Part shown: positions 11,784-25,317 of the stretch, piece after piece
How positions within the stretch are numbered: the stretch's first letter is position 1
Layout: each line of letters begins with the position of its first letter
Assembly (NCBI GenBank): GCA_041918855.1
Contig: JAYRUX010000014.1
Location: 778-64,777, forward strand
Reading direction: 5' to 3'
Source: Luteimonas sp.
GTDB taxonomy: Bacteria; Pseudomonadota; Gammaproteobacteria; Xanthomonadales; Xanthomonadaceae
Length of the DNA stretch: 64,000 nt
Made by a program: the position numbers and the translations under genes
The notes under the pieces: generated by a model
Told to the model about the DNA's origin: nothing
What the model saw: the letters and a program-made list of their open reading frames with translations, nothing else
Databases searched by the model: none

Positions 11784-11816
11784 GCTTTGGTTCGAAGCGA
11801 GGCTTCGAACCAAAGC
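11784..11816 (-). terminator. 15-bp perfect hairpin just downstream of rnpB (terminator or processing stem)
   Basis: GCTTTGGTTCGAAGC-GAG-GCTTCGAACCAAAGC, 3 nt from the rnpB 3' end. No clear U-tract. Confidence 0.55.
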
Positions 11817-11819
11817 GGC

Positions 11820-12191
11820 GGAGCCGGCCGATAAGCCGGGTTCTGTCGTGGACAGTCATTCCTCTAGGCGCAGCGTCACCGCTACGCTCGAGCAACCTAC
11901 CCGGACCCGACGCGGGCCACGTCATGAGGTCCCTATTTGGTCTTGCTCCCGGTGGGGTTTGCCGTGCCGGCCTGTTGCCAGGCTCGCGGTGCGCTCTTAC
12001 CGCACCATTTCACCCTTGCCTGATCCGATGCACCCGAAGGTAACCGGCCATCGGCGGTATCTTTCTGTTGCACTTTCCGTCGGCTCGCGCCGCCCAGGGG
12101 TTACCTGGCACCGTGCCCTGTGGAGCCCGGACTTTCCTCGGCATCCGCCCCGCCGAAACAGGATGGATGACGCGACTGCCTGGCCGACTCC
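11820..12191 (-). ncRNA. rnpB: RNase P RNA, class A
   Basis: Minus strand reads GGAGTCGGCCAGGCAGTCGCG...GAGGAAAGTCCGGGCTCCACAGGGCA...ACAGAACCCGGCTTATCGGCCGGCTCC, the conserved P4 elements. Located between rsmI and mraZ. Confidence 0.96.
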
Positions 12192-13355: not shown

Positions 13356-14543
13356 ATGCGTCATTCGTGGAAGAAGTCTCTTGCTGTCGCACTGGGCGGG
13401 CTGCTGCTCGCGGGCTGCGCCACCGTCGAGGTGACGCGCCCTGCGCCGACGCCCGGCGACGTGCCGCAGGAGGTCCCGACGCACCGCGAACACTGGCAGT
13501 TCGACGCCGGCAGCCGTCCGGCCGCGGAGCGCGACGGCTACCGTCCGCCGACGAAGCTCGCGGTGCTGCTGCCGCTTACCGGCAGCCTGGCCACCGCCGC
13601 GGCACCGGTGCGCGACGGCCTGCTCGCCGGGTACTACGGCGAATCCCGCCGCCGCCCGGAGCTGCAGTTCTACGACACCGCGGGCACCGCCGGCGGCGCA
13701 GTCGCCGCGTACGCACGCGCGGTGGCCGAGGGTGCCGACCAGGTGGTCGGGCCGCTCGGCCGCGACGAGGTGGAGGCGGTCTTCCGCCAGACCCAGCCCG
13801 AGGTCCCGGTGGTGGCCCTGAACCGACCCGACGCCCCGCCGCCGCGCAACAGCGCCAGCTACGCACTCGCACCCGAGGACGAAGGCCTGGCCGCCGCCGA
13901 CTACCTGGCCGCGCGCAACGCGTTGCGCGTGCTGGTGCTGAGCTCCGGCGACGACAATGCCCGCCGCAGCATCGACGCCTTCCAGGCGCGGCTGCAGGAG
14001 CTCGGCGGCAGCATCGTCCAGACCTTTGCCGTCGTCGGCGAGGCGCCCGCGGACATGACCGTGCTGCTGCAGGGCGCCGCGCAGCGCGAAGGTGGCATCG
14101 ATGCCGTCTTCCTCGCCGTGCGCGGGCCGCAGGCGCGGCTGGTCGCGCCGCAACTGTCGGCGGCGGGGCTTGCCGGCAAGCCGCGGGTGGCGACCTCGCA
14201 GCTGGTGTCCGGCACCGGCAAGGCCGCCGAGGACAGCGCGCTCGACGGCATCGCCTTCCCCACCGACGCCTGGAGCGCCGGCGGCGTCCCCGGGTTGCCC
14301 GGGGCGGCGGCCACAGGCTCGCGCCTGCCGACCGCGCGCGGGCCGGCGGCGCGCCTGTTCGCGTTCGGCTACGACGCCTGGCTGATCAGCGCCTACCTCG
14401 ACCGCCTTGCAACCGCCGACGGCCGGATCCAGGGCGCCGGCGGCACCCTGCGCATCGACGACGAAGGCCATGTACTCCGCGCGCCCGCGTGGTCCACCTT
14501 CAGCAGCGGCTACGTCGTGCCGCTGGCCGGCAGCGGCGGGTGA
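13356..14543 (+). CDS. lpoA: LpoA/LppC-family PBP activator lipoprotein (short form)
   Basis: Lipobox LAGC; [24 protein letters not shown]. Divergent from rsmI and upstream of yraN, as in gammaproteobacteria. Confidence 0.85.
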
Positions 14544-14908
14544 CCGGAACCCGCCAGCGCGGTGCGCTGGTGGAAGCGGCAGCGCGCACGCACCTGCTGC
14601 GCGCAGGCCTCGCGGACGTGGCGGCCAACGCCAGCTATCGCCTCGGCGAGCTGGACCTGGTGATGCGCGACGGCGACACGCTGGTGTTCGTGGAAGTGCG
14701 CTACCGCCGCGCAAGCGGTTTCGGCGGCGGCGCCGCATCCGTGGATGCGGGAAAGCGCCAGCGCATCGCCCGCGCCGCGGGAATGTTCCTGGCCCGGCAC
14801 CCCCAGTACGCGCAGTGGCCCTGCCGTTTCGACGTGGTCGCCGCCAGCGGCGACCCGGAGGCCCCGACGCTCGACTGGATCCGCGACGCCTTCCGCCTCG
14901 GCGATTGA
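14540..14908 (+). CDS. yraN: YraN/UPF0102 family protein
   Basis: [27 protein letters not shown]; GTG start overlaps the lpoA stop. Confidence 0.92.
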
Positions 14909-14936
14909 GCTGTCGCCCACGGGCTCGGACCAGAGC

Positions 14937-15893
14937 TCAACCCGGACGGAAGTGCTCGTGGCCACTGCCGGCCGGACGCCAGGGCCCACCCGCGGCATCG
15001 GCGGCGCGCACGCCGGGCGTGGCGACGATGCGCCCGATGCAGGCGATGGCGACGCCGGTCGCTTCGGCCACGCCGGCCACCCTGTCGCGCGCGGTTGGCG
15101 CGGTGGTGAAGCAGAGCTCGTAATCGTCACCGCCCGCGCCCTGCAGCGCGCGCCGCGCGTCTCCCATGGCGTACAGGGCGAGCGCCTGCGAACAGGGCAA
15201 GGCGTCGACATCCACCTCTGCGCCGACACCACTGGCCGTACAGACGTGGCCGAGATCGGCAAGCAGGCCATCGGACACGTCGACGCAGGCGTGCGCCACG
15301 CCGCGCAGCGCGCGCCCGGCGGCCAGCCGCGGCGTCGGCCGGTCCAGGCGACCGCGCAGCACCGGATCGACGTCCGTTCCCGAGCGCCACTGCGCCAGCG
15401 CGCCGGCGGCGTCGCCGAGGGTGCCCGTCACCCACACCAGGTCACCGGCGCGGGCGGCGTCGCGGCGCAATGCCGCGCCCGGCTCCACCAGGCCATGCGC
15501 GGTCACGCATATCGACAGCGGGCCGCGCGTGGTGTCGCCGCCGACGAGGGCCACGCCGCAGTCGCCGGCCAGCGCCAGGAACCCGTCGAGGAAGCCCTGC
15601 ACCCACGCCGGGTCGGCCTCCGGCAGCGACAGCGAGAGCGTGCACCAGGCCGGCTCCGCGCCCATCGCCGCGAGGTCGGACAGGTTGACCGCGAGCGCCT
15701 TCCAGCCGATGTCGGCCGGTGACGTCTCCACCGGGAAATGGACGCCGGCGTTCAACGTATCCATCGCCACCACCAGCTGCCGCCCGGGCGGCGGCTGCAG
15801 CAGAGCGGCATCGTCGCCGATACCGAGCACCACGTCGCCGCGCGTCGGCGCGCGCGCGCGGACCAGGGCGACGAGATCGAATTCGGCGGCCAT
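14937..15893 (-). CDS. thiL: Thiamine-monophosphate kinase
   Basis: GIGDDAA, KALAVNLSDLAAMGA, DVSDGL, GGDDYELCFT. Confidence 0.95.
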   Translation of the reverse strand: MAAEFDLVALVRARAPTRGDVVLGIGDDAALLQPPPGRQLVVAMDTLNAGVHFPVETSPADIGWKALAVNLSDLAAMGAEPAWCTLSLSLPEADPAWVQGFLDGFLALAGDCGVALVGGDTTRGPLSICVTAHGLVEPGAALRRDAARAGDLVWVTGTLGDAAGALAQWRSGTDVDPVLRGRLDRPTPRLAAGRALRGVAHACVDVSDGLLADLGHVCTASGVGAEVDVDALPCSQALALYAMGDARRALQGAGGDDYELCFTTAPTARDRVAGVAEATGVAIACIGRIVATPGVRAADAAGGPWRPAGSGHEHFRPG

Positions 15894-15916
15894 GCGCGTG
15901 GTCCGCGTGCGCGGGC

Positions 15917-16387
15917 TCAGCCCTGCCGCGCGCCCTGGATCTCCACCGCGCGCCACTGCGCGGCGGCGCGGTCGAGCACGCCGTTGACGAAGGTGTGGCC
16001 ATGCTCGGAGCCGAAGCGCTTGACCGTGCGCAGGGCCTCGTCGATCACCACCCGGTACGGCACGTCGGGGCGGTGCTGGAGTTCGTACGCCGAGATCCGC
16101 AGCATCGCGCGCTCGATGGCGTCGACCTCCTCCATCGTGCGATCGAGGAACGGCTGCAGCGCGACGTCGAGTTCGCGGTAGTGGCGGGAGACGCCTTCCA
16201 CCAGGTCCTCGAAGTAGGCGAGGTCCGCGGGCTCGTGCAACTGCTCGTGGGCGAACTGCGCAATGATGTCCTTCACCGGCGCGCGCGAGATCTGCATGGC
16301 ATACACCGCCTGCAGCGCGCGGCGGCGCGAACGCGATCGCGCCACCGGATCGACGCCATCCCGGCGCGGGCCGCGCGGCCCGGTCAT
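15917..16387 (-). CDS. nusB: Transcription antitermination factor NusB
   Basis: [30 protein letters not shown]. Follows ribH. Confidence 0.95.
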
Positions 16388-16851
16388 GGCAACGCCTCCA
16401 TCAGGCTCGCCATCTCGATCGCCACCAGCGCGCACTCCTCGCCCTTGTTGCCGTGGCTGCCGCCGGCGCGGTGCTCGGCGTCGACCTGCTGGTCGACCGC
16501 GAGCACGCCGTTGGCCACCGGCACGCCGCTGTCCAGCGCCACCCGCATCAGCGCATCTGCGCAGCAGTCGGCGACATGTTCGAAGTGGCGGGTGTCGCCG
16601 CGCACCACGCAGCCGAGCGCGACGATGGCATCGTGGGCGTTGCCGGCGGCGATGCGGGCCGCGGCCACCGGGATCTCCCAGGCGCCGGGCACCCGGACCA
16701 CGTCGATGGCGGCTTCGGCGACGCCGTTGTCGGCAAAGGTGCGGCGCGCGCCGGCGACCAGCGCATCCGTGATGCGCGGGTTCCAGCGGCTGGCAATGAT
16801 CGCGAAGCGGGCGCCGGCGGGCGCGCGCAGTGCGCCTTCGTGAAGTGTCAT
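16384..16851 (-). CDS. ribH: 6,7-dimethyl-8-ribityllumazine synthase
   Basis: [31 protein letters not shown]. Confidence 0.96.
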
Positions 16852-16857
16852 GCGGTC

Positions 16858-17778
16858 CTATGCGGCAATGCGTGCGTTGAGTGGGATGGGCGGTGCGTCC
16901 GACAGGCCGAGGCCGGGCACGTCCTGGTGCCTGCGGTGCATCCAGTACGCCCCGGACTCCGGCACCAGGGTCACGTCCTGGGCGATGCAGTCCTCTTCGG
17001 AGTAGTAGTGGAACACCACGCTCTTGCGCGTCTTCGACGCGTCCGCGATCGGACTGCCTCCGTGCAGCAGGTAGGCGCTCCAGATGAAGACATCGCCCTT
17101 GCGCGCAGCGAACGTCTCGGGCTGCAGTCCGCGCGCGGCGCATTCGCGCTGCATGTAGTCGGCCCACTGGCCCATTTCTTCCTGTACGAAATGGTTGCTG
17201 CCGGTGCTGAACACGTGAGGCGGGATCCTGTGGCTGCCGGGGAAATAGCGCAACGGTCCGGCGTCCACGTGGCAATCCTCGAGCGCCACCCAGATCGCGA
17301 TCAGGTGGTGCTGGCTGCGCGGCGTCATGTAGAGCGCATCGACGTGGTCGATCTGGCCACTGCCCTGCTCGAAGCTCAGCGAGTTGCAGAGCACCGGCGT
17401 GTGCCCGAGAAGTGCGGCCAGGATCGGCGTGATGCGATCGTTGAGCGCGAGCGCGCGCACTGAAGCGCTCTCGAGGTAGAGGTCGTTGGTCTTGAATCGG
17501 TGCTGGCGACGCGCCTGTTCGTCGACATCGCACAGGCGCAGGCGCTGGTTGGTCACCAGGTCGTCGACCACGATACGCGGGGCCTTGTCGTCCCAAGCGT
17601 TGCGTACCTCGGCTTCCGCGGGCTCGAGTTCCGCAGCGCCATAGAACGCCGGGAGCACCACGAAACCCTGCGCGTCCCATTCGCCACGCAGCCTGGCCAG
17701 TGCATCGCCGGTGTCCACGGCCGGCGCCGTGGCGGCTTCGCCGGCGCGCTGCCAGGGCCATCTCAGCCTGAGTCCCAT
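16858..17778 (-). CDS. PhyH-family Fe(II)/2-oxoglutarate dioxygenase (paralog 1)
   Basis: GFVVLP, H-x-D in DHVDALYM, WVALED, GPLRYFPGSH, LLHGGS...R..VVFHY. Confidence 0.85.
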   Translation of the reverse strand: MGLRLRWPWQRAGEAATAPAVDTGDALARLRGEWDAQGFVVLPAFYGAAELEPAEAEVRNAWDDKAPRIVVDDLVTNQRLRLCDVDEQARRQHRFKTNDLYLESASVRALALNDRITPILAALLGHTPVLCNSLSFEQGSGQIDHVDALYMTPRSQHHLIAIWVALEDCHVDAGPLRYFPGSHRIPPHVFSTGSNHFVQEEMGQWADYMQRECAARGLQPETFAARKGDVFIWSAYLLHGGSPIADASKTRKSVVFHYYSEEDCIAQDVTLVPESGAYWMHRRHQDVPGLGLSDAPPIPLNARIAA

Positions 17779-17879
17779 GTCGCCCTGCCTCGTCTCTTCC
17801 GGTCGCCTAGTCTAGCTGCCGCGACCCCGGATCGCCGAGGTGCCGGTGGCGGATGCGCAGCGCAAGGCGCGCGCGCCCA

Positions 17880-18818
17880 TCAGCCGCGCGGTGGCAGCTC
17901 GCCCTCGCCGTCGCCGACCGGCTGATGCCTGCGATGCAGCCAGAAGCCGCCCTCGTACGGCACCAGGTCGAAGCCGACGCTGCGGCTGTCGGACTCGGTG
18001 AAGTAGTGGAACACGATGCTGCGGCGGGTCCTGGAGCGATCGATGATCTCGCTGCCGCCGTGCATCAGGTACGCGCTCCAGATGAACACGTCGCCCTTGC
18101 GCGCGGCGAACGACTCCGCGCGCAGGCCACGCAGGCCGGACTGTTCGTACATGTACGCCGTCCACGCGGGCATTTCGTCCTGGATCGCGCGGGTGTCTCC
18201 GTTGGAGAAGCGGTACTGATCGATCCTGTGGCTGCCCGGGTAGTAGCGCAGCGGTCCTGCCTCCGGGTGGCAATCCTCGAGCGCCACCCAGATGGCGACG
18301 AGCTTCCCGGGCGTGATCGGCGCCATGTACAGCGCGTCGACGTGGTCGGGCTGGCCGCTGCCCTGCTCGAAGTTGAGCGAATTGCAGATCACCGGGGCCT
18401 CGCCGAGCAGGGCCGCGAGGATCGGCGTCAGCCGGGGGTTGAGCGCGAGGCGGCGGACCGCATCCAGCTCCATGTACAGGTCGTTGACCTTGAAGCGGTG
18501 CTCGCGCGCATGCTCGGCGGGGACGTCAGACAGGCGCAGGCGCTGGTTGGTGATGAGATCGTCGACCACGATGCGCGGCGCGCGCGTGCGCCAGGCCTCC
18601 TGGACCACCTCGCGGGCGGCGTCGATCTCGGCATCGTCATAGAACCCGGGCAGCACGAGGTAGCCGTCGCGCTCCCAGGCCTCCAGCTGCCCGCTGGCGA
18701 TGCCGGCCACCGCTTCCGGCGGCGCGGCCGGAACCGGGGTGGCCGGAACCGGGGCGTCCTGTATCGGGCCACCGCCCTGCGCGCCCAGCATCGAACGCAG
18801 CCTCTGCATCAGGCCCAT
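17880..18818 (-). CDS. PhyH-family Fe(II)/2-oxoglutarate dioxygenase (paralog 2)
   Basis: Same motifs (DHVDALYM, GPLRYYPGSH, LMHGGS). ATG at 18818 with an AAGGAG RBS. Confidence 0.85.
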   Translation of the reverse strand: MGLMQRLRSMLGAQGGGPIQDAPVPATPVPAAPPEAVAGIASGQLEAWERDGYLVLPGFYDDAEIDAAREVVQEAWRTRAPRIVVDDLITNQRLRLSDVPAEHAREHRFKVNDLYMELDAVRRLALNPRLTPILAALLGEAPVICNSLNFEQGSGQPDHVDALYMAPITPGKLVAIWVALEDCHPEAGPLRYYPGSHRIDQYRFSNGDTRAIQDEMPAWTAYMYEQSGLRGLRAESFAARKGDVFIWSAYLMHGGSEIIDRSRTRRSIVFHYFTESDSRSVGFDLVPYEGGFWLHRRHQPVGDGEGELPPRG

Positions 18819-18859
18819 GACACGACTCCTTTCCGATGGCCCGCCGGCCGGCGGCGCGA

Positions 18860-20017
18860 TTATCGCACCGGTGGTGCCGGTCCAGCGCCCGACCGCGCAC
18901 GCGCGGCGGATTCGGCACCGGGGAAGGCCACGTGTTCGACCACCTCCAGGCCGAAGCCCGCCAGCCCCACCTGCTTGCGCGGCGTCCCCAGCACGCGCAG
19001 GCGGCCGAGGCCGAGGTCGGCCAGGATCTGGCTGCCGGCGCCGTTGCGCCGCCACTCGGCCAGGCCGCCGCCCCGGCGCGGGCGGGTCTCGGGCTGCTCG
19101 CGGATGCGCGCCAGCAGGGTGTCGGGATCGACCGCTTCGCCCAGCAGCACCAGGGCACCGCTGCCGTCGGCGGCGATGGCCTGCAGCACGTCGGCCACGG
19201 CGGGGCCGAAATCGGCCCGCCGCCACTGCAGCGCATCGGCCAGCGGGTTCTGCATCGCCACGCGCACCAGCGTCGGCCGCGCTGGATCCGGCGCGCCGCG
19301 GAGCAGCGCGAAGTGCAGCGAATGGCTGACGCGGTCGCGGTAGGTGAACAGGCGGAAGGGGCCGTGGTCGGTCTCGATGTCGCGCTCGTCCACGCGTTCG
19401 ACGGTGTGCTCGGTGTCCAGGCGGTGGCGGATCAGGTCCTCGATCGAGCCGATCTTCAGTCCGTGCTCGCGCGCGAACACCTCGAGCTCCGGCCGCCGCG
19501 CCATGCTGCCGTCGGGGTTGAGGATCTCCACCAGCACGCCCGCGGGTTCGAGCCCCGCCAGCAGCGCCAGGTCCGCTGCCGCCTCGGTGTGGCCGGCGCG
19601 GTTGAGCACGCCGCCGGGCTGCGCCTGCAGCGGGAAGATGTGGCCGGGCTGCGACAGGTCCGCGGGCGTGGCATCGGGGCGCACCGCGGTGCGGATGGTG
19701 TGCGCGCGGTCGTAGGCGGAGATGCCGGTGGTGACGCCTTCGGCGGCCTCGATGCTCACGGTGAAGTTGGTGCCGTGCGACGAGGTGTTGTCGCGCACCA
19801 TCGGCGGCAGCCCGAGCTGGCGGCAGCGCTCTCGGGTCAGCGACAGGCAGACGAGCCCTCGGGCGTGGGTGACCATGAAGTTGATGTCGGTCGGCTTCAC
19901 CAGCTCGGCCGCCATGATCAGGTCGCCCTCGTTCTCGCGGTCCTCGTCATCGACGATGACCACCATGCGCCCGGCGCGCAGTTCTTCCAGCAGTTCGGGG
20001 ATCGGGGCGAAGGGCAT
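18860..20017 (-). CDS. ribB: DHBP synthase fused to a degenerate GTP cyclohydrolase II domain (RibBX type)
   Basis: DDEDRENEGD, RAGHTEA. The C-terminal domain lacks the Zn-binding cysteines (VRVAMQNPLADALQWRRADFG). Confidence 0.92.
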   Translation of the reverse strand: MPFAPIPELLEELRAGRMVVIVDDEDRENEGDLIMAAELVKPTDINFMVTHARGLVCLSLTRERCRQLGLPPMVRDNTSSHGTNFTVSIEAAEGVTTGISAYDRAHTIRTAVRPDATPADLSQPGHIFPLQAQPGGVLNRAGHTEAAADLALLAGLEPAGVLVEILNPDGSMARRPELEVFAREHGLKIGSIEDLIRHRLDTEHTVERVDERDIETDHGPFRLFTYRDRVSHSLHFALLRGAPDPARPTLVRVAMQNPLADALQWRRADFGPAVADVLQAIAADGSGALVLLGEAVDPDTLLARIREQPETRPRRGGGLAEWRRNGAGSQILADLGLGRLRVLGTPRKQVGLAGFGLEVVEHVAFPGAESAARARSGAGPAPPVR

Positions 20018-20041
20018 GTCGGAGTCCTGGAAGAATGCGGC

Positions 20042-20656
20042 TCAGCCGCCGCGTGCCGACAGCAGGCGCTCGACGTAGCGCGCCACCATGTCGACCTCGA
20101 GGTTGACGGCATCGCCCTCGCGCGTGGAAGCGAACGCGGTGTGGGCGATCGTGTGCGGGACCAGCGCGACGCCGAATCCGGCGTCGTCGACCTCGTTGAC
20201 GGTGAGGCTCACGCCGTCCACGCAGATCGAGCCCTTGGGCGCCACGTAGCGCGCGAGCGCCGGCGGCATCGCGAAGCGCCAGCGCTGCGCGCGACCGTCG
20301 TCGGCGACCGACAGCACGCGGCCGACGCCGTCCACATGGCCGCTGACGAGGTGTCCGCCAAGGCGGTCGCCGGCGCGGGTGGCGCGTTCGAGGTTGACCG
20401 CGGACCCCACGCCGAGGCCGCCGAGCGTGGTCAGCGCCAGGGTCTCGTTGGAGGCATCGGCCTCGAAACCGTCGTCATCGAAGGCGACGACCGTCAGGCA
20501 GACGCCGTTGACCGCGATGCTCTCGCCGAGCGTGATCGGGTCGCCGTCGCCGCGGAAGCCGCGGAGCGTGCCGGCGGCGATGGCCAGGCGTGCGTCGCCG
20601 CCGCGCAGCTCGCGTGCGGCGAGCGCGCCGACGCCTTCGATGAGACCTGTGAACAT
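20042..20656 (-). CDS. ribE: Riboflavin synthase alpha chain
   Basis: MFTGLIE start; GESIAVNGVCLTV, GGHLVSGHVDG, GSICVDGVSLTVN, VNLEVD. Confidence 0.96.
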   Translation of the reverse strand: MFTGLIEGVGALAARELRGGDARLAIAAGTLRGFRGDGDPITLGESIAVNGVCLTVVAFDDDGFEADASNETLALTTLGGLGVGSAVNLERATRAGDRLGGHLVSGHVDGVGRVLSVADDGRAQRWRFAMPPALARYVAPKGSICVDGVSLTVNEVDDAGFGVALVPHTIAHTAFASTREGDAVNLEVDMVARYVERLLSARGG

Positions 20657-20729
20657 GGCAACCGTCCTGCGCGTGGAAAGCGGAGGACGCCCACGGGCGG
20701 GCATCGCGCGGCGAGGCCGCGCAGTGCCG

Positions 20730-20912
20730 TCTTCTTCCATCCGGACTTTCCGGCGGCTCGCGCCACCGACCGTCGGCCCCGGAGTCCGACCGGGTCTGCT
20801 GACCTCCAGCGCCGGCCCTCGCGGGTGGCACCGAAGCGCTCGCGGGCTCGTGCGGGGCGCCGTGGCGCCGCACCTACCGCCGGTGGGGAATCGCACCCCG
20901 CCCTGAAGACGT
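20730..20912 (-). promoter_or_regulatory. FMN (RFN) riboswitch
   Basis: Minus strand TCTTCAGGGCGGGGTGCGATTCCCCACCGGCGGT...AGCCCGCGAGCG...GGTCAGCAGACCCGGT...CCGGGGCCGACGGT...AGTCCGGATGGAAGAAG, upstream of ribE. Confidence 0.93.
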
Positions 20913-20943
20913 CTCGTGTTGCCGGCGAACCGGCGCGCGCAGC

Positions 20944-21714
20944 TTACCACCCGCCCGGCTTGCGCCGGGCGTGCACGAACAGCGGCCAGCGCAGACGCTG
21001 CGTTGCAGCGGCGTCGCCCCAGGCGGCGGCGATCGCGGGGGCGAAGCGGGCGACGGGGTCGTCGCCGGTGCGCACGCGGTGGCGCCGGGTGGCCGAGTAG
21101 CTGGACAGGTAGCCGAGCAGCCGCGCCAGCGGCCAGTCCGCCTCCAGCGCCAGTGCCGGCGGGGCGAGCGGCTCGAATGGCCAGGCGTATCCCGCGTAGC
21201 CGGCATCGACGTCAGCCCGTTCGGGTGGCCAGTCGCAGGCAATGGCGGCATGGAATGCGGCGAAGGCGTCCTCCAGGCCTGGCGGCGGCCGGATGTCCTG
21301 GTAGCCCCATGCAATCAGCACGCCACCCGGCGCCAGCACGCGCTCGCACTCGGCGAACCAGGCCGCACGGTCGAACCAGTGCAGCGCCTGGGCCACGCAG
21401 GCGGCATCGGCCGTCGCGTCGCCGAGGCTGCAGCGTTCGCCGGGTTCCACCGCGAAGGCGACGTTGGCGGGCGCGGTCGCGGCGGCCACCTGCGCCGCAC
21501 TGGGGTCGGTGGCGAAGACGCGGTCGAAGTGCGCGGCGAGGGCGCGGCTGGCCTGCCCGCTGCCACATCCGGCTTCCCAGGCCAGCCGGCGCGCCGGCGC
21601 GACCGAGGCGATCCAGTCGAACAGGTCCGCCGGGTACTCCGGCCGCGCCTGGGCGTAGTCGGCGGCGACTGCCGAGAAATGGTCCTTGAAGACCGGCGCG
21701 TGGTCCGCTGTCAT
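20944..21714 (-). CDS. Class I SAM-dependent methyltransferase
   Basis: AWEAGCGSGQAS motif I; VAQALHWFD; LAPGGVL. Confidence 0.88.
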   Translation of the reverse strand: MTADHAPVFKDHFSAVAADYAQARPEYPADLFDWIASVAPARRLAWEAGCGSGQASRALAAHFDRVFATDPSAAQVAAATAPANVAFAVEPGERCSLGDATADAACVAQALHWFDRAAWFAECERVLAPGGVLIAWGYQDIRPPPGLEDAFAAFHAAIACDWPPERADVDAGYAGYAWPFEPLAPPALALEADWPLARLLGYLSSYSATRRHRVRTGDDPVARFAPAIAAAWGDAAATQRLRWPLFVHARRKPGGW

Positions 21715-21775
21715 GGCGCTTCCCTCCCCGCCGTCACCGCAACGCGGCCCGGCTTCCCGTCAGCCCGGTTTGCCG

Positions 21776-22900
21776 TCAGCCCGGATTCCCCGTTGCGACC
21801 CTGGCGTCCACCGCGCCGGGCCGCAGCAGGACGCGCAGGTCGTCGCCCACGCGCAGGCTCTCCACGATCCGCAGCTGCAGCCGTTGCGCCATGTCGCTGA
21901 TGCCGAGCCCGCCGAACAGGGGGCGCGACAGGTCGCCGAGCAGGACCGGGGCCACGTACAGCAGCAGCTCGTCGACCAGCCCCGCGCGCAGGAAGGCGCC
22001 GGCGAGCGTGGCACCGGTTTCCACCTGCACCTCGCCAATGCCGCGCGCGGCCAGAAGCCGCAGCACCGCGTCAAGGTCGAGCTGGCCGTTGCTGGTCGCC
22101 ACCGCGACGTGCTCCAGCTCGAGGCCACGCGGCGGCTTGACGTCGGGCGCGTGCAGGTACAGCGTGGGTGCATCGCCTTCGCGGATGCGGCCGCGGGCCA
22201 CGGTGGCGAGCCCCGGGTCGAGCACCACGCGCAGGGGCGGCACGAAGTCCGCCGCCTCGTCCATCCGCACGGTGAGCTGCGGGTCGTCGGCCAGCACGGT
22301 GCCGGAGCCGGTCAGCAGCGCGCCGCTGCGCGCGCGCCAGCGCATCACGTCGGCGCGCGCGGCAATGCCGGTGATCCACTTCGACTCGCCGCTGGCGAGC
22401 GCGGTGCGGCCATCGATGCTCATGCCCAGCTTCACCCGCAGCCACGGCCGGCCGCGTTCGACGCGCGACAGGAAGCCGCGGTTGAGATCGCGCGCCTGGG
22501 CTTCCATCAGTCCCGAAGCCACCTCGATGCCGGCGGCTGCCAGGCGATCGAAGCCGCGGCCGTCGACCTCGGGGAACGGATCGCGCATCGCCGCCACCAC
22601 GCGCGCGACGCCGGCGGCAATGAGGGCGTCGGCGCAGGGCCCGGTGTGGCCGGTGTGGGCGCAGGGCTCGAGGGTGACGTAGGCCGTCGCACCACGGGCG
22701 CGGTCCCCGGCCGCGGCAAGCGCCAGCACCTCCGCATGCGCCTCGCCCTGGCGCCGGTGCCAGCCCTCGCCGACGATGGCGTCGCCGTGGGCGAGGACGC
22801 AGCCGACCATCGGGTTGGGCCTGGTGGTGTAGGTGCCAAGGGCCGCCAGCTGCAGGGCGCGCGCCATCATGGCGTGGTCGGTGGCGCTGGATTCACTCAT
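21776..22900 (-). CDS. ribD: Bifunctional pyrimidine deaminase/reductase
   Basis: PNPMVGCV, HAEV, TLEPCAHTGHTGPC, DGRTALASGESKWIT. Confidence 0.96.
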   Translation of the reverse strand: MSESSATDHAMMARALQLAALGTYTTRPNPMVGCVLAHGDAIVGEGWHRRQGEAHAEVLALAAAGDRARGATAYVTLEPCAHTGHTGPCADALIAAGVARVVAAMRDPFPEVDGRGFDRLAAAGIEVASGLMEAQARDLNRGFLSRVERGRPWLRVKLGMSIDGRTALASGESKWITGIAARADVMRWRARSGALLTGSGTVLADDPQLTVRMDEAADFVPPLRVVLDPGLATVARGRIREGDAPTLYLHAPDVKPPRGLELEHVAVATSNGQLDLDAVLRLLAARGIGEVQVETGATLAGAFLRAGLVDELLLYVAPVLLGDLSRPLFGGLGISDMAQRLQLRIVESLRVGDDLRVLLRPGAVDARVATGNPG

Positions 22901-22983
22901 CGCGGTTCCTTCATTGGGGGCCGGGCCGGATGCCGGCCGCGCGCCCCACGCCGACGGCGGGATCGCGTCGCCGGTCCATCCGC

Positions 22984-23505
22984 CTACCGCTTGCGACCCT
23001 TGCCGGTGGTGGCTTCGTCGCCGCCGAGCAGGGGCAGCTGGCCTTCGCCGGGCAGTTCGCGCTCGAGCCGGTCGAGTTCCTCGCGGAAATCGGCGACATC
23101 CTCGAACGAGCGGTACACCGATGCGTAACGCACGTAGCCGACGTGGTCGAGCTTGCGCAGCTCGGCCATCACGAACTCGCCCACGCGCCGCGACGCCACT
23201 TCACGCTCGGTCGTCATGCGCAGCTGGTGGATCACCGCACGCACCGCCGACTCGATCTGCTCTTCGGACACCGGGCGCTTGTTGAGCGCGCGGTCGAACC
23301 CCGCCCGCAGCTTGCGCGCGTCGAAGGTGTCCCGGCGGCCGTCGGACTTGATGATCGCGGGCAGCTTGAGTTCGATCGTCTCGATGGTCGAGAAGCGCTC
23401 GCCGCAGGCCTCGCACACCCGGCGCCGGCGGATGGTGGCGCCGTCGTCGCTCACCCGTGAATCGATGACCCGGGTGTCCTGGTGCTGGCAGAAAGGACAG
23501 TGCAA
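22984..23505 (-). CDS. nrdR: Transcriptional repressor NrdR
   Basis: TTG start (M)HCPFC; [16 protein letters not shown]; ATP-cone; [13 protein letters not shown]. Confidence 0.95.
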
Positions 23506-23518
23506 AGGTGCAGCCGGG

Positions 23519-24063
23519 TCAGATGTCGTAGTTGAAGGGCAGCATGAAGGCGCTTCGCGCCGGCGTACCGGCGCAGGTCGAGGGGGCATAGCCGATGGCG
23601 CGGGCGGTCGCCTCGGCGGCCTCGGCGAAGCGCTCGTCCGTGGCGCACACCGCATGCGCCGCGTGCACCGCCCCATCCCGGTCCATGAGCACCAGCACGT
23701 GCGCCGCTCCGGACACGCGCCGTGCCTGCAGCAGTGCGGGATAGTCCGCACTGGGCGGAACCTCCAGTTTGCGCGGGTCGGTACAGCCCGGCGCGTGCTC
23801 CGACCACCCGTCCTTCAGGCGGTCCAGTTCGTCTTTCGACAGCAATTGGCGGGAGCCCGCGGCGCATTGGCCGGTCTTTCCGTCGTACCGGGCCGCGAAG
23901 TGTGCCGTGTCGAAACGCTCCGGGCTGCGGAGTGGCGCCTCGCCTGCAATTGGCCTGTGGCCACCGGCCCGTTCCCCTGTGCCGGGCGTGCCGGCGCAGC
24001 CCGCCACCAGCGCCGCCGAGACCGCCAGGGCCGCCCCGGCGCGGCACGCGCCACGGGCAGCCA

Positions 24064-24064
<1 letters not shown>
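23519..24064 (-). CDS. Predicted lipoprotein with a TonB C-terminal-like domain
   Basis: Lipobox LVAGC after ATG 24064; C-terminus [24 protein letters not shown]...LPFNY resembles TonB_C. Start overlaps the glyA stop. Confidence 0.65.

Positions 24065-25317
<1,253 letters not shown>

Follow-up and report, generated by a model that had tools for sequence, protein, structure and literature searches.

Tandem PhyH-family dioxygenase genes in a riboswitch-preceded riboflavin operon of a Luteimonas-like bacterium, and their possible role in surface glycan tailoring

Introduction

The PhyH superfamily of Fe(II)/2-oxoglutarate (2OG) dioxygenases (Pfam PF05721), to which human PAHX (2a1x) and PHYHD1 (2opw/3obz) belong, is built on the double-stranded beta-helix (DSBH) fold, with an iron-binding triad and a 2OG-binding arginine. 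Several enzymes of this fold act on sugars, namely EvdO2 and HygX (orthoester formation), SnoK and SnoN (carbocyclisation and epimerisation of the nogalamycin sugar) and KanJ (kanamycin B dioxygenase), and they represent a precedent for C-H oxidation on carbohydrate units. In the bacterial envelope, cytoplasm-facing Fe/2OG hydroxylases of a glycolipid are found in KdoO, for the core of lipopolysaccharide (LPS), and LpxO, for lipid A, which belong to other Pfam families (Kdo_hydroxy and Asp_Arg_Hydrox). Here, we describe two PhyH-family genes, PhyH1 and PhyH2, which lie in tandem among riboflavin biosynthesis (rib) genes in a 64,000-nucleotide stretch of a Luteimonas sp. assembly (contig JAYRUX010000014.1; hereafter the window, meaning the whole stretch of DNA that was analysed), and weigh what their products may do.

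In Xanthomonas, PhyH-family genes are variable accessory genes of the LPS cassettes, and their presence differs between strains (bioRxiv 10.1101/2022.03.02.482478; see also PMC2238763). XAC3597 is located in the X. citri LPS cluster together with wzt/wzm, and Tn5 insertion in this gene resulted in a biofilm and swimming defect (PMC3130047). Our literature search found nothing specific that would connect PhyH with riboflavin or ribH, with rib operons of Lysobacter, or with Wzt/sulfotransferase chemistry.

Results and Discussion

Two intact members of one PhyH-fold subfamily

The window adds uncharacterised members to a well-known superfamily of enzymes, and their place in the operon is unusual and lineage-restricted. 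PhyH1 and PhyH2 have diverged from each other, are both intact, and belong to a single uncharacterised subfamily of Fe(II)/2OG dioxygenases with the PhyH fold; they are encoded as follows:

16858-17778, minus strand: PhyH1, 306 aa, PF05721, with a GAGG Shine-Dalgarno-like sequence upstream; adjoins ribH
17779-17879, minus strand: PhyH2-PhyH1 spacer, 101 nt, holding TAGACT at 17814-17809
17880-18818, minus strand: PhyH2, 312 aa, PF05721, with an AAGGAG Shine-Dalgarno sequence upstream; adjoins ribBA

Both proteins match the Pfam PhyH model (64.8 bits for PhyH1 and 84.4 bits for PhyH2, with a cutoff of 22), and they are 61% identical to each other over 264 aa (E = 3e-120), within the 55-65% that a preliminary description of this DNA had estimated for their core. 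The intact H-x-D...H triads and the common FEQGSGQxDHVDALYM motif noted in that description are present in both: the motif spans residues 136-151 of PhyH1 and 150-165 of PhyH2, and the iron triad and 2OG-binding arginine are H145/D147/H239 and R251 in the former, and H159/D161/H253 and R265 in the latter. Triad and arginine are invariant across 27 family members, and in a profile search of the PDB, which also found KanJ, the H-x-D of PHYHD1 and of EvdO2 aligned with that of the window proteins. The AlphaFold2 model of PhyH2 (predicted local distance difference test score of 89; predicted template-modelling (TM) score of 0.85) has the DSBH fold, with low confidence at residues 13-37. Foldseek searches with this model gave a probability of 1.00 to PAHX, PHYHD1, EctD, H11 and others, the top matches being proline hydroxylase H11, EctD, PHYHD1, GriE, SnoK/SnoN and HygX (E = 1e-12 to 1e-15).

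Models of particular activities were matched poorly or not at all. PhyH2 reached 19.6 bits with the EctD equivalog TIGR02408 (cutoff of 336.5), with which PhyH1 had no match; the methylphosphonate hydroxylase PhnY* model (NF052437) gave 31.7 bits with a cutoff of 500; and Kdo_hydroxy and Asp_Arg_Hydrox were absent among the Pfam matches of the window proteins. An exhaustive profile search recovered 467 representative clusters of the subfamily at E <= 1e-30. Regarding the N-terminal extensions, for which membrane binding had been suggested, they do begin with a short basic/hydrophobic stretch, and residues 13-37 are disordered in the AlphaFold2 model, but in a comparison with shuffled sequences their hydrophobic moment did not stand out, and other family members do not conserve the extension; the proposed membrane binding gains no support from this.

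Genomic contexts of the family

To place the pair among its relatives, 73 loci from one genome per species and 80 metagenome loci were considered, with gene-called contexts added for eleven homologues and one window protein. Contexts were taken from database gene calls, tblastn label transfer and pooled Pfam scans, and rib linkage was scored by searching all loci with the window rib proteins. Among loci whose homologue reaches 40% identity, rib linkage was found in 13 of 124, or in 6 of 51 groups after dereplication at 80% identity. Homologues are thus rarely found near rib genes, a result that the preliminary description had itself named as telling against tailoring of a flavin. All six rib-linked groups share the order nrdR-ribD-methyltransferase-riboswitch-ribE-ribBA-PhyH-ribH-nusB-thiL and look of Luteimonas/Lysobacter type, the named ones being Luteimonas or Lysobacter; a single PhyH gene fills the ribBA-ribH slot in Luteimonas sp. 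Y-2-2-4F, Lysobacter sp. Root690 and metagenome contigs, with a 4-nt overlap between the PhyH stop and the ribH start in L081. In neighbour-joining trees, whose deep nodes are poorly supported, rib-linked genes formed an exclusive clade in 1 of 100 bootstraps, and two genes from non-rib loci, L078 (next to a glycosyltransferase family 4 (GT4) gene and PAP2) and L088 (next to a methyltransferase gene), nest among them. Moreover, across 50 dereplicated sequences, in which 42 columns are more than 95% conserved, no column of the catalytic core separates rib-linked members from closely related non-rib ones. Since there is neither a discriminating core column nor a supported rib clade, rib-linked enzymes are argued to share the chemistry of the others. 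Linkage to rib genes is lineage-specific and not a property of the family.

Outside the rib operon, relatives are found in loci for surface polysaccharides. Three of the four further contexts taken (P0078, P0088 and P0022) are Wzm/Wzt, i.e., ABC-transporter-dependent, polysaccharide loci with Wzt (plus Wzt_C), Wzm, a sulfotransferase, two RgpF, an epimerase/dehydratase, a glycosyltransferase family 2 (GT2) protein and Polysacc_synt_2, and in these loci Acyl_transf_3 lies immediately upstream of PhyH, on the same strand. By tblastn label transfer, the same gene set was recovered in L007 (Rhodanobacter sp. FW102-FHT14D07), L101, L108, L128, L133 and the Acidimicrobiales loci L024 and L026. Over core columns, the relatives inside Wzm/Wzt loci (L007/L166, L101, L128, L133, L167, L168 and L024) are 47-64% identical to PhyH1. 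In a Polaromonas locus, rml genes and an adenylyl-sulfate (APS) kinase gene lie upstream.

A pooled Pfam scan covered open reading frames (ORFs) within 5 kb of the homologue in 36 non-rib dereplicated loci, with hits counted per ORF, ORFs selected heuristically and phylogenetic correction consisting of the 80% dereplication only. Counting nearest plus farther ORFs, Methyltransf_23 (9+3) and Methyltransf_11 (6+5) came top of both lists, these being overlapping models that often match the same ORF, and S-adenosylmethionine (SAM) methyltransferases are accordingly the commonest neighbours of the family. They were accompanied by Epimerase (5+3, with the overlapping sugar epimerase/dehydratase models Polysacc_synt_2 and GDP_Man_Dehyd), Acyl_transf_3 (5), RgpF (5), ABC_tran (3+5), Wzt_C (4) and GT2 (3+2). 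Among individual relatives, P0020 (approximately 65% identical) has three flanking methyltransferase genes, with Acyl_transf_3 and a 1184-aa beta-helix protein nearby; L088 (approximately 65% identical) is flanked by a methyltransferase gene; Paraburkholderia copies have genes for methyltransferases of approximately 400 aa on both sides; and P0005 is divergent from GT4 and PAP2 genes. Fusions were also found (P0178, P0172, P0266, P0257, P0236 and P0167), comprising PhyH with a SAM methyltransferase at the N- or C-terminus in three architectures, a sulfotransferase with PhyH, and double PhyH-PhyH proteins, the last of which echo the tandem genes of the window. In addition, P0012 and P0020, of approximately 426 aa, have a conserved N-terminal domain (residues 1 to approximately 130; locus L169, 2508-3800) for which neither Pfam nor PDB sequence searches gave a match.

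The riboflavin operon and its expression signals

In the window, the two PhyH genes are co-oriented, as the preliminary description had it; they lie on the minus strand at the coordinates given there, with rib genes of the same orientation on either side. The neighbouring features are:

14937-15893, minus strand: thiL, an ORF, with AIRS/AIRS_C on the L081 and L083 orthologues; last of the co-oriented run examined
15917-16387, minus strand: nusB, by tblastn conservation in relatives and Pfam NusB on the L081 and L083 orthologues
16384-16851, minus strand: ribH, lumazine synthase (PF00885 and TIGR00114)
18860-20017, minus strand: ribBA, a fusion of 3,4-dihydroxy-2-butanone 4-phosphate (DHBP) synthase and GTP cyclohydrolase II (PF00926 and PF00925)
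20042-20656, minus strand: ribE, riboflavin synthase (Pfam Lum_binding and NF006767), first gene after the riboswitch
20725-20914, minus strand: flavin mononucleotide (FMN) riboswitch aptamer (RF00050, 62.9 bits, E = 1e-12, model positions 1-138)
20944-21714, minus strand: class I SAM methyltransferase (Pfam Methyltransf_11/25), between ribD and the riboswitch
21776-22900, minus strand: ribD (Pfam RibD_C and deaminase, TIGR00326), 5' of the riboswitch and part of the co-oriented cluster

The order along the minus strand is nrdR-ribD-SAM methyltransferase-FMN riboswitch-ribE-ribBA-PhyH2-PhyH1-ribH-nusB-thiL. The pair does lie between the two rib genes as previously stated, but the gene named ribB is a ribBA fusion, because it carries both the DHBP synthase and the GTP cyclohydrolase II domains; its score with NCBIfam NF010626, 492.8 bits, is slightly below the 513-bit cutoff. 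Gaps measure 41 nt from ribBA to PhyH2, 101 nt from PhyH2 to PhyH1, and 6 nt, rather than the 7 nt given before, from the PhyH1 stop to ribH. The nusB gene is immediately 3' of ribH, and the overlap of the ribH stop with the nusB start (ATGA, 16384-16387) suggests that these two genes are translationally coupled. As read from the sequence, the true start of ribE is the ATG at 20656. The methyltransferase gene is conserved at the same position in rib-linked relatives; it was considered as a counterpart of the methyltransferases fused or adjacent to PhyH elsewhere, and was rejected, as no similarity was found.

The riboswitch presumed in the preliminary description is real. Long inserts in variable stems bring the RF00050 match just below the gathering score of 66.2; the match spans the full model and includes the conserved core, and orthologous aptamers in all four relatives (L002, L003, L081 and L095) score 70-93 bits, above the gathering threshold. 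A CGUCCU...AGGACG pairing 5' of ribE possibly sequesters the Shine-Dalgarno sequence and is a candidate expression platform; no T-run terminator was seen between the aptamer and ribE on reading the sequence. Scanning 14500-24500, we found no sigma-70 promoter-like hexamer pair anywhere, and no terminator on the minus strand, hence none between the riboswitch and the PhyH genes; the 101-nt spacer has a fold stability no greater than that of shuffled sequences (z = 0.62). The candidate -10 hexamers proposed earlier, TAGACT (17814-17809) and GATAAT (18864-18859), exist, but the sigma-70 scan does not support the independent promoters they were thought to mark. The pair has an RFN aptamer upstream on the same strand and no intervening terminator, which makes it a putative part of the FMN-riboswitch regulon, and PhyH2 and PhyH1 are probably co-transcribed with ribE-ribBA and ribH-nusB-thiL. 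The sequencing runs containing window sequence are DNA metagenomes only.

Origin and integrity of the tandem pair

A recent duplication in situ was rejected as the origin of the pair, given that none of 100 bootstraps placed PhyH1 and PhyH2 as each other's exclusive sister. PhyH2 groups with a gene of a Luteimonas metagenome-assembled genome (MAG) (L001/L085) in 100 of 100 bootstraps; this orthologue is 87% identical by tblastn and 88% over core columns, and in L001, which keeps only the PhyH2-type gene, 46 nt separate it from ribH, the next gene downstream. PhyH1 falls in a loose group with L002, L089 and L095, which are rib-linked and single-copy (67 of 100 bootstraps), its closest relatives being L095 (74% over trimmed core columns, 71% by tblastn) and L089 (71% and 66%). 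PhyH1- and PhyH2-type genes therefore share one slot in different genomes, which points to one of two histories, an ancient duplication followed by differential loss, or a second gene acquired at the same site.

The identical tandem is present in an independent activated-sludge assembly. The GC content at third codon positions (GC3) is 0.85 in PhyH1 and 0.917 in PhyH2, with 0.89-0.92 in neighbours; the lower GC of both PhyH genes lies mostly in first codon positions and therefore reflects amino-acid composition, GC3 being slightly low in PhyH1 alone, and gives no clear sign of recent transfer in the window. Elsewhere in the family, the PhyH gene of L081 (6001-6924) has a GC3 of 0.75 with neighbours at 0.83-0.89, and that of Variovorax (L074, 6001-6903) has 0.71 with neighbours at 0.84. 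Low GC3 of PhyH genes in several genomes hints that the family moves horizontally.

Proposed function and alternative explanations

The host is a Luteimonas-like member of the Lysobacteraceae from activated sludge, in which the PhyH genes lie within the riboswitch-preceded rib operon. Their position would represent a lineage-specific insertion, that is, hitch-hiking in an operon already mixing unrelated housekeeping genes. Fe(II) would be bound by the H-x-D...H triad and 2OG by the conserved arginine; decarboxylation of 2OG would lead to an Fe(IV)=O species and oxidation of a C-H bond, most likely hydroxylation. The enzymes may act at the cytoplasmic face on an O-polysaccharide or exopolysaccharide linked to undecaprenyl, either at one of its sugars or at a substituent of such a sugar, and in relatives the hydroxylated product would then be O-methylated, sulfated or acylated. 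We give this proposal as a whole, i.e., co-transcribed, hitch-hiking hydroxylases that tailor a surface glycan, with both reaction type and glycan substrate inferred, an about even chance of being correct. The preliminary description had left two possibilities side by side, oxidative tailoring of a flavin-related metabolite or cargo for envelope modification. Tailoring of an envelope glycan is the likelier of the two because relatives mostly adjoin surface-polysaccharide and methyltransferase genes; their loci and fusions favour the envelope part of that description, and its flavin part is unsupported on comparative grounds.

Several observations weigh against glycan tailoring by hitch-hiking enzymes. 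No glycan-biosynthesis gene adjoins the PhyH genes of the window, recognisable polysaccharide loci make up about one quarter to one third of the non-rib loci, and the remaining contexts are uninformative (two-component systems, secDF/rapA, glutathione S-transferase (GST), a Pseudomonas tailocin repressor). We found no characterised member of the subfamily in databases or literature, and the closest solved structures are only 16-21% identical. The pattern scan, with one genome per species, retrieved no Xanthomonas locus, and XAC3597 may belong to another branch of PhyH. Moreover, the rib slot is kept in several dereplicated lineages with spacing resembling translational coupling, which also fits a functional link. 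Finally, MAGs of Flavipsychrobacter and Flavihumibacter (Chitinophagaceae) carry distant PhyH genes (approximately 30% identical), each followed directly by a ribD gene in the same orientation:

L052, 8001-9745: distant PhyH-ribD locus
L054, 1324-2951: distant PhyH-ribD locus
L062, 8001-9462: distant PhyH-ribD locus
L063, 1217-2768: distant PhyH-ribD locus

As these are two genera of one family, the arrangement may be inherited synteny and not a second, independent link to rib genes.

The last two points would be most at home in an explanation in which the two enzymes are genuine, FMN-riboswitch-controlled members of the rib pathway that oxidise one of its metabolites, such as 6,7-dimethyl-8-ribityllumazine, the ribityl chain, 5-amino-6-ribitylaminopyrimidinedione (ARP) or riboflavin. 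The genes do sit exactly between ribBA and ribH, with gaps of 41 nt and 6 nt; the same slot is filled in 6 dereplicated lineages, up to the stop/start overlap of L081; the FMN riboswitch upstream of ribE is conserved; and the Chitinophagaceae MAGs add their ribD neighbours. Yet 45 of 51 dereplicated groups are not rib-linked, the rib-linked genes do not form a supported clade, with the non-rib L078 and L088 nested among them, no core residue is specific to them, relatives 58-65% identical sit in polysaccharide/methyltransferase loci, and our literature search found no flavin-linked PhyH enzyme. As nusB and thiL, which are unrelated to flavins, are carried by the same unit, position alone does not imply flavin chemistry, and we regard this explanation as improbable. 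The more specific version, in which the pair converts 6,7-dimethyl-8-ribityllumazine, or another ribityl-pyrimidine or lumazine, to a hydroxylated lumazine under FMN control, appears slightly less probable still; there, the tandem would stand for two successive or alternative oxidations.

A rather stronger competitor, which we still consider clearly less probable than glycan tailoring, retains the hitch-hiking position and assigns the enzymes another widespread substrate, neither flavin nor glycan, for instance a protein, a small polar metabolite or the head group of a membrane lipid. It would suit a family whose alignment columns are on average 53% identical from Gammaproteobacteria to Planctomycetota, which also has relatives in cyanobacteria and Acidimicrobiia, whose contexts are mostly monocistronic and variable and whose N- or C-terminal basic tails vary as well. 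The invariant charged residues R82, D86, D87, R93, K110, D113, E117 and R122 suggest a polar or charged ligand, amino-acid and ectoine hydroxylases are among the top structural matches, and lipid-type neighbours occur (LPG_synthase_TM and 4HBT in Variovorax, PAP2 in L078). What speaks for a glycan instead is that, within 5 kb in the 36 loci, 4 ORFs matched Wzt_C and 5 matched RgpF, an enrichment by rough estimate made without a background control, together with the methyltransferase and sulfotransferase fusions, which point to a multi-step tailoring pathway and not to a lone metabolic enzyme; scores far under the EctD and PhnY* equivalog cutoffs also go against this competitor. It is very unlikely, in turn, that one or both genes are decaying, non-functional passengers of a past insertion or duplication. 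The slightly reduced GC3 of PhyH1 and the state of L001, which keeps a PhyH2-type gene alone beside ribH, could be read in this way, but both ORFs are full length with every family-invariant residue intact, each gene has its own Shine-Dalgarno sequence, the GC3 of PhyH2 equals that of its neighbours, and the tandem recurs unchanged in the second activated-sludge assembly.

If tailoring of a surface glycan is indeed what these enzymes do, C-H hydroxylation would be a new entry among the ways in which bacteria are known to tailor their surface polysaccharides, and the hydroxylation may create sites then capped by neighbouring or fused methyltransferases and sulfotransferases. A caution for annotation also arises, as a position in a riboswitch-preceded biosynthetic operon need not indicate function and guilt by association would mislabel the PhyH genes. 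Were the flavin explanation true, a new branch of flavin/lumazine metabolism would be at hand, with, in its lumazine version, an enzymatic origin for hydroxylated-lumazine by-products of bacteria. Cultured single-copy carriers, namely Lysobacter sp. Root690 and Luteimonas sp. Y-2-2-4F, make the question directly testable.

Other elements of the window

Two further RNA matches were recorded in the window:

11816-12191, minus strand: bacterial RNase P RNA class A, 309 bits; relative L081 has this gene in the corresponding neighbourhood
19817-19920, plus strand: RF02820 'Vibrio RNA AS9', 53.1 bits with a gathering score of 50, antisense to ribBA in its conserved 5' part

The RF02820 match probably reflects conservation of the ribB coding sequence rather than a small RNA.

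Comparison with known systems

Relative to the PhyH/PAHX superfamily, with which they share the DSBH fold, the triad and the 2OG-binding arginine, the window proteins differ in their distance from solved members (16-21% identity for the window family), in a context without acyl-CoA-related genes, and in the N-terminal segment PRIVVDD...HRFKxNDLYLE, which is a signature of the window subfamily; the PDB profile match to PHYHD1 has E = 1e-7. EctD, proline hydroxylase H11 and GriE lead the Foldseek results (E about 1e-14, TM 0.55-0.7), but neither ect nor amino-acid pathway genes are near the window PhyH genes. KdoO and LpxO can be taken as functional analogues of the proposed activity.

By sequence and by fold, the best matches include the sugar-acting enzymes EvdO2, HygX, SnoK, SnoN and KanJ (4xab, E = 4e-7; 5ep9, 5epa, 4xca and 6s0u). 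These enzymes have secondary-metabolite glycosides in Actinobacteria as their substrates and are approximately 17-21% identical, whereas the window family is found in Wzm/Wzt-type loci and, here, in a rib operon. Closest in setting is XAC3597, a PhyH-superfamily gene that adjoins wzt/wzm and rfbC in a bacterium of the same order (Lysobacterales/Xanthomonadales) as the host of the window.

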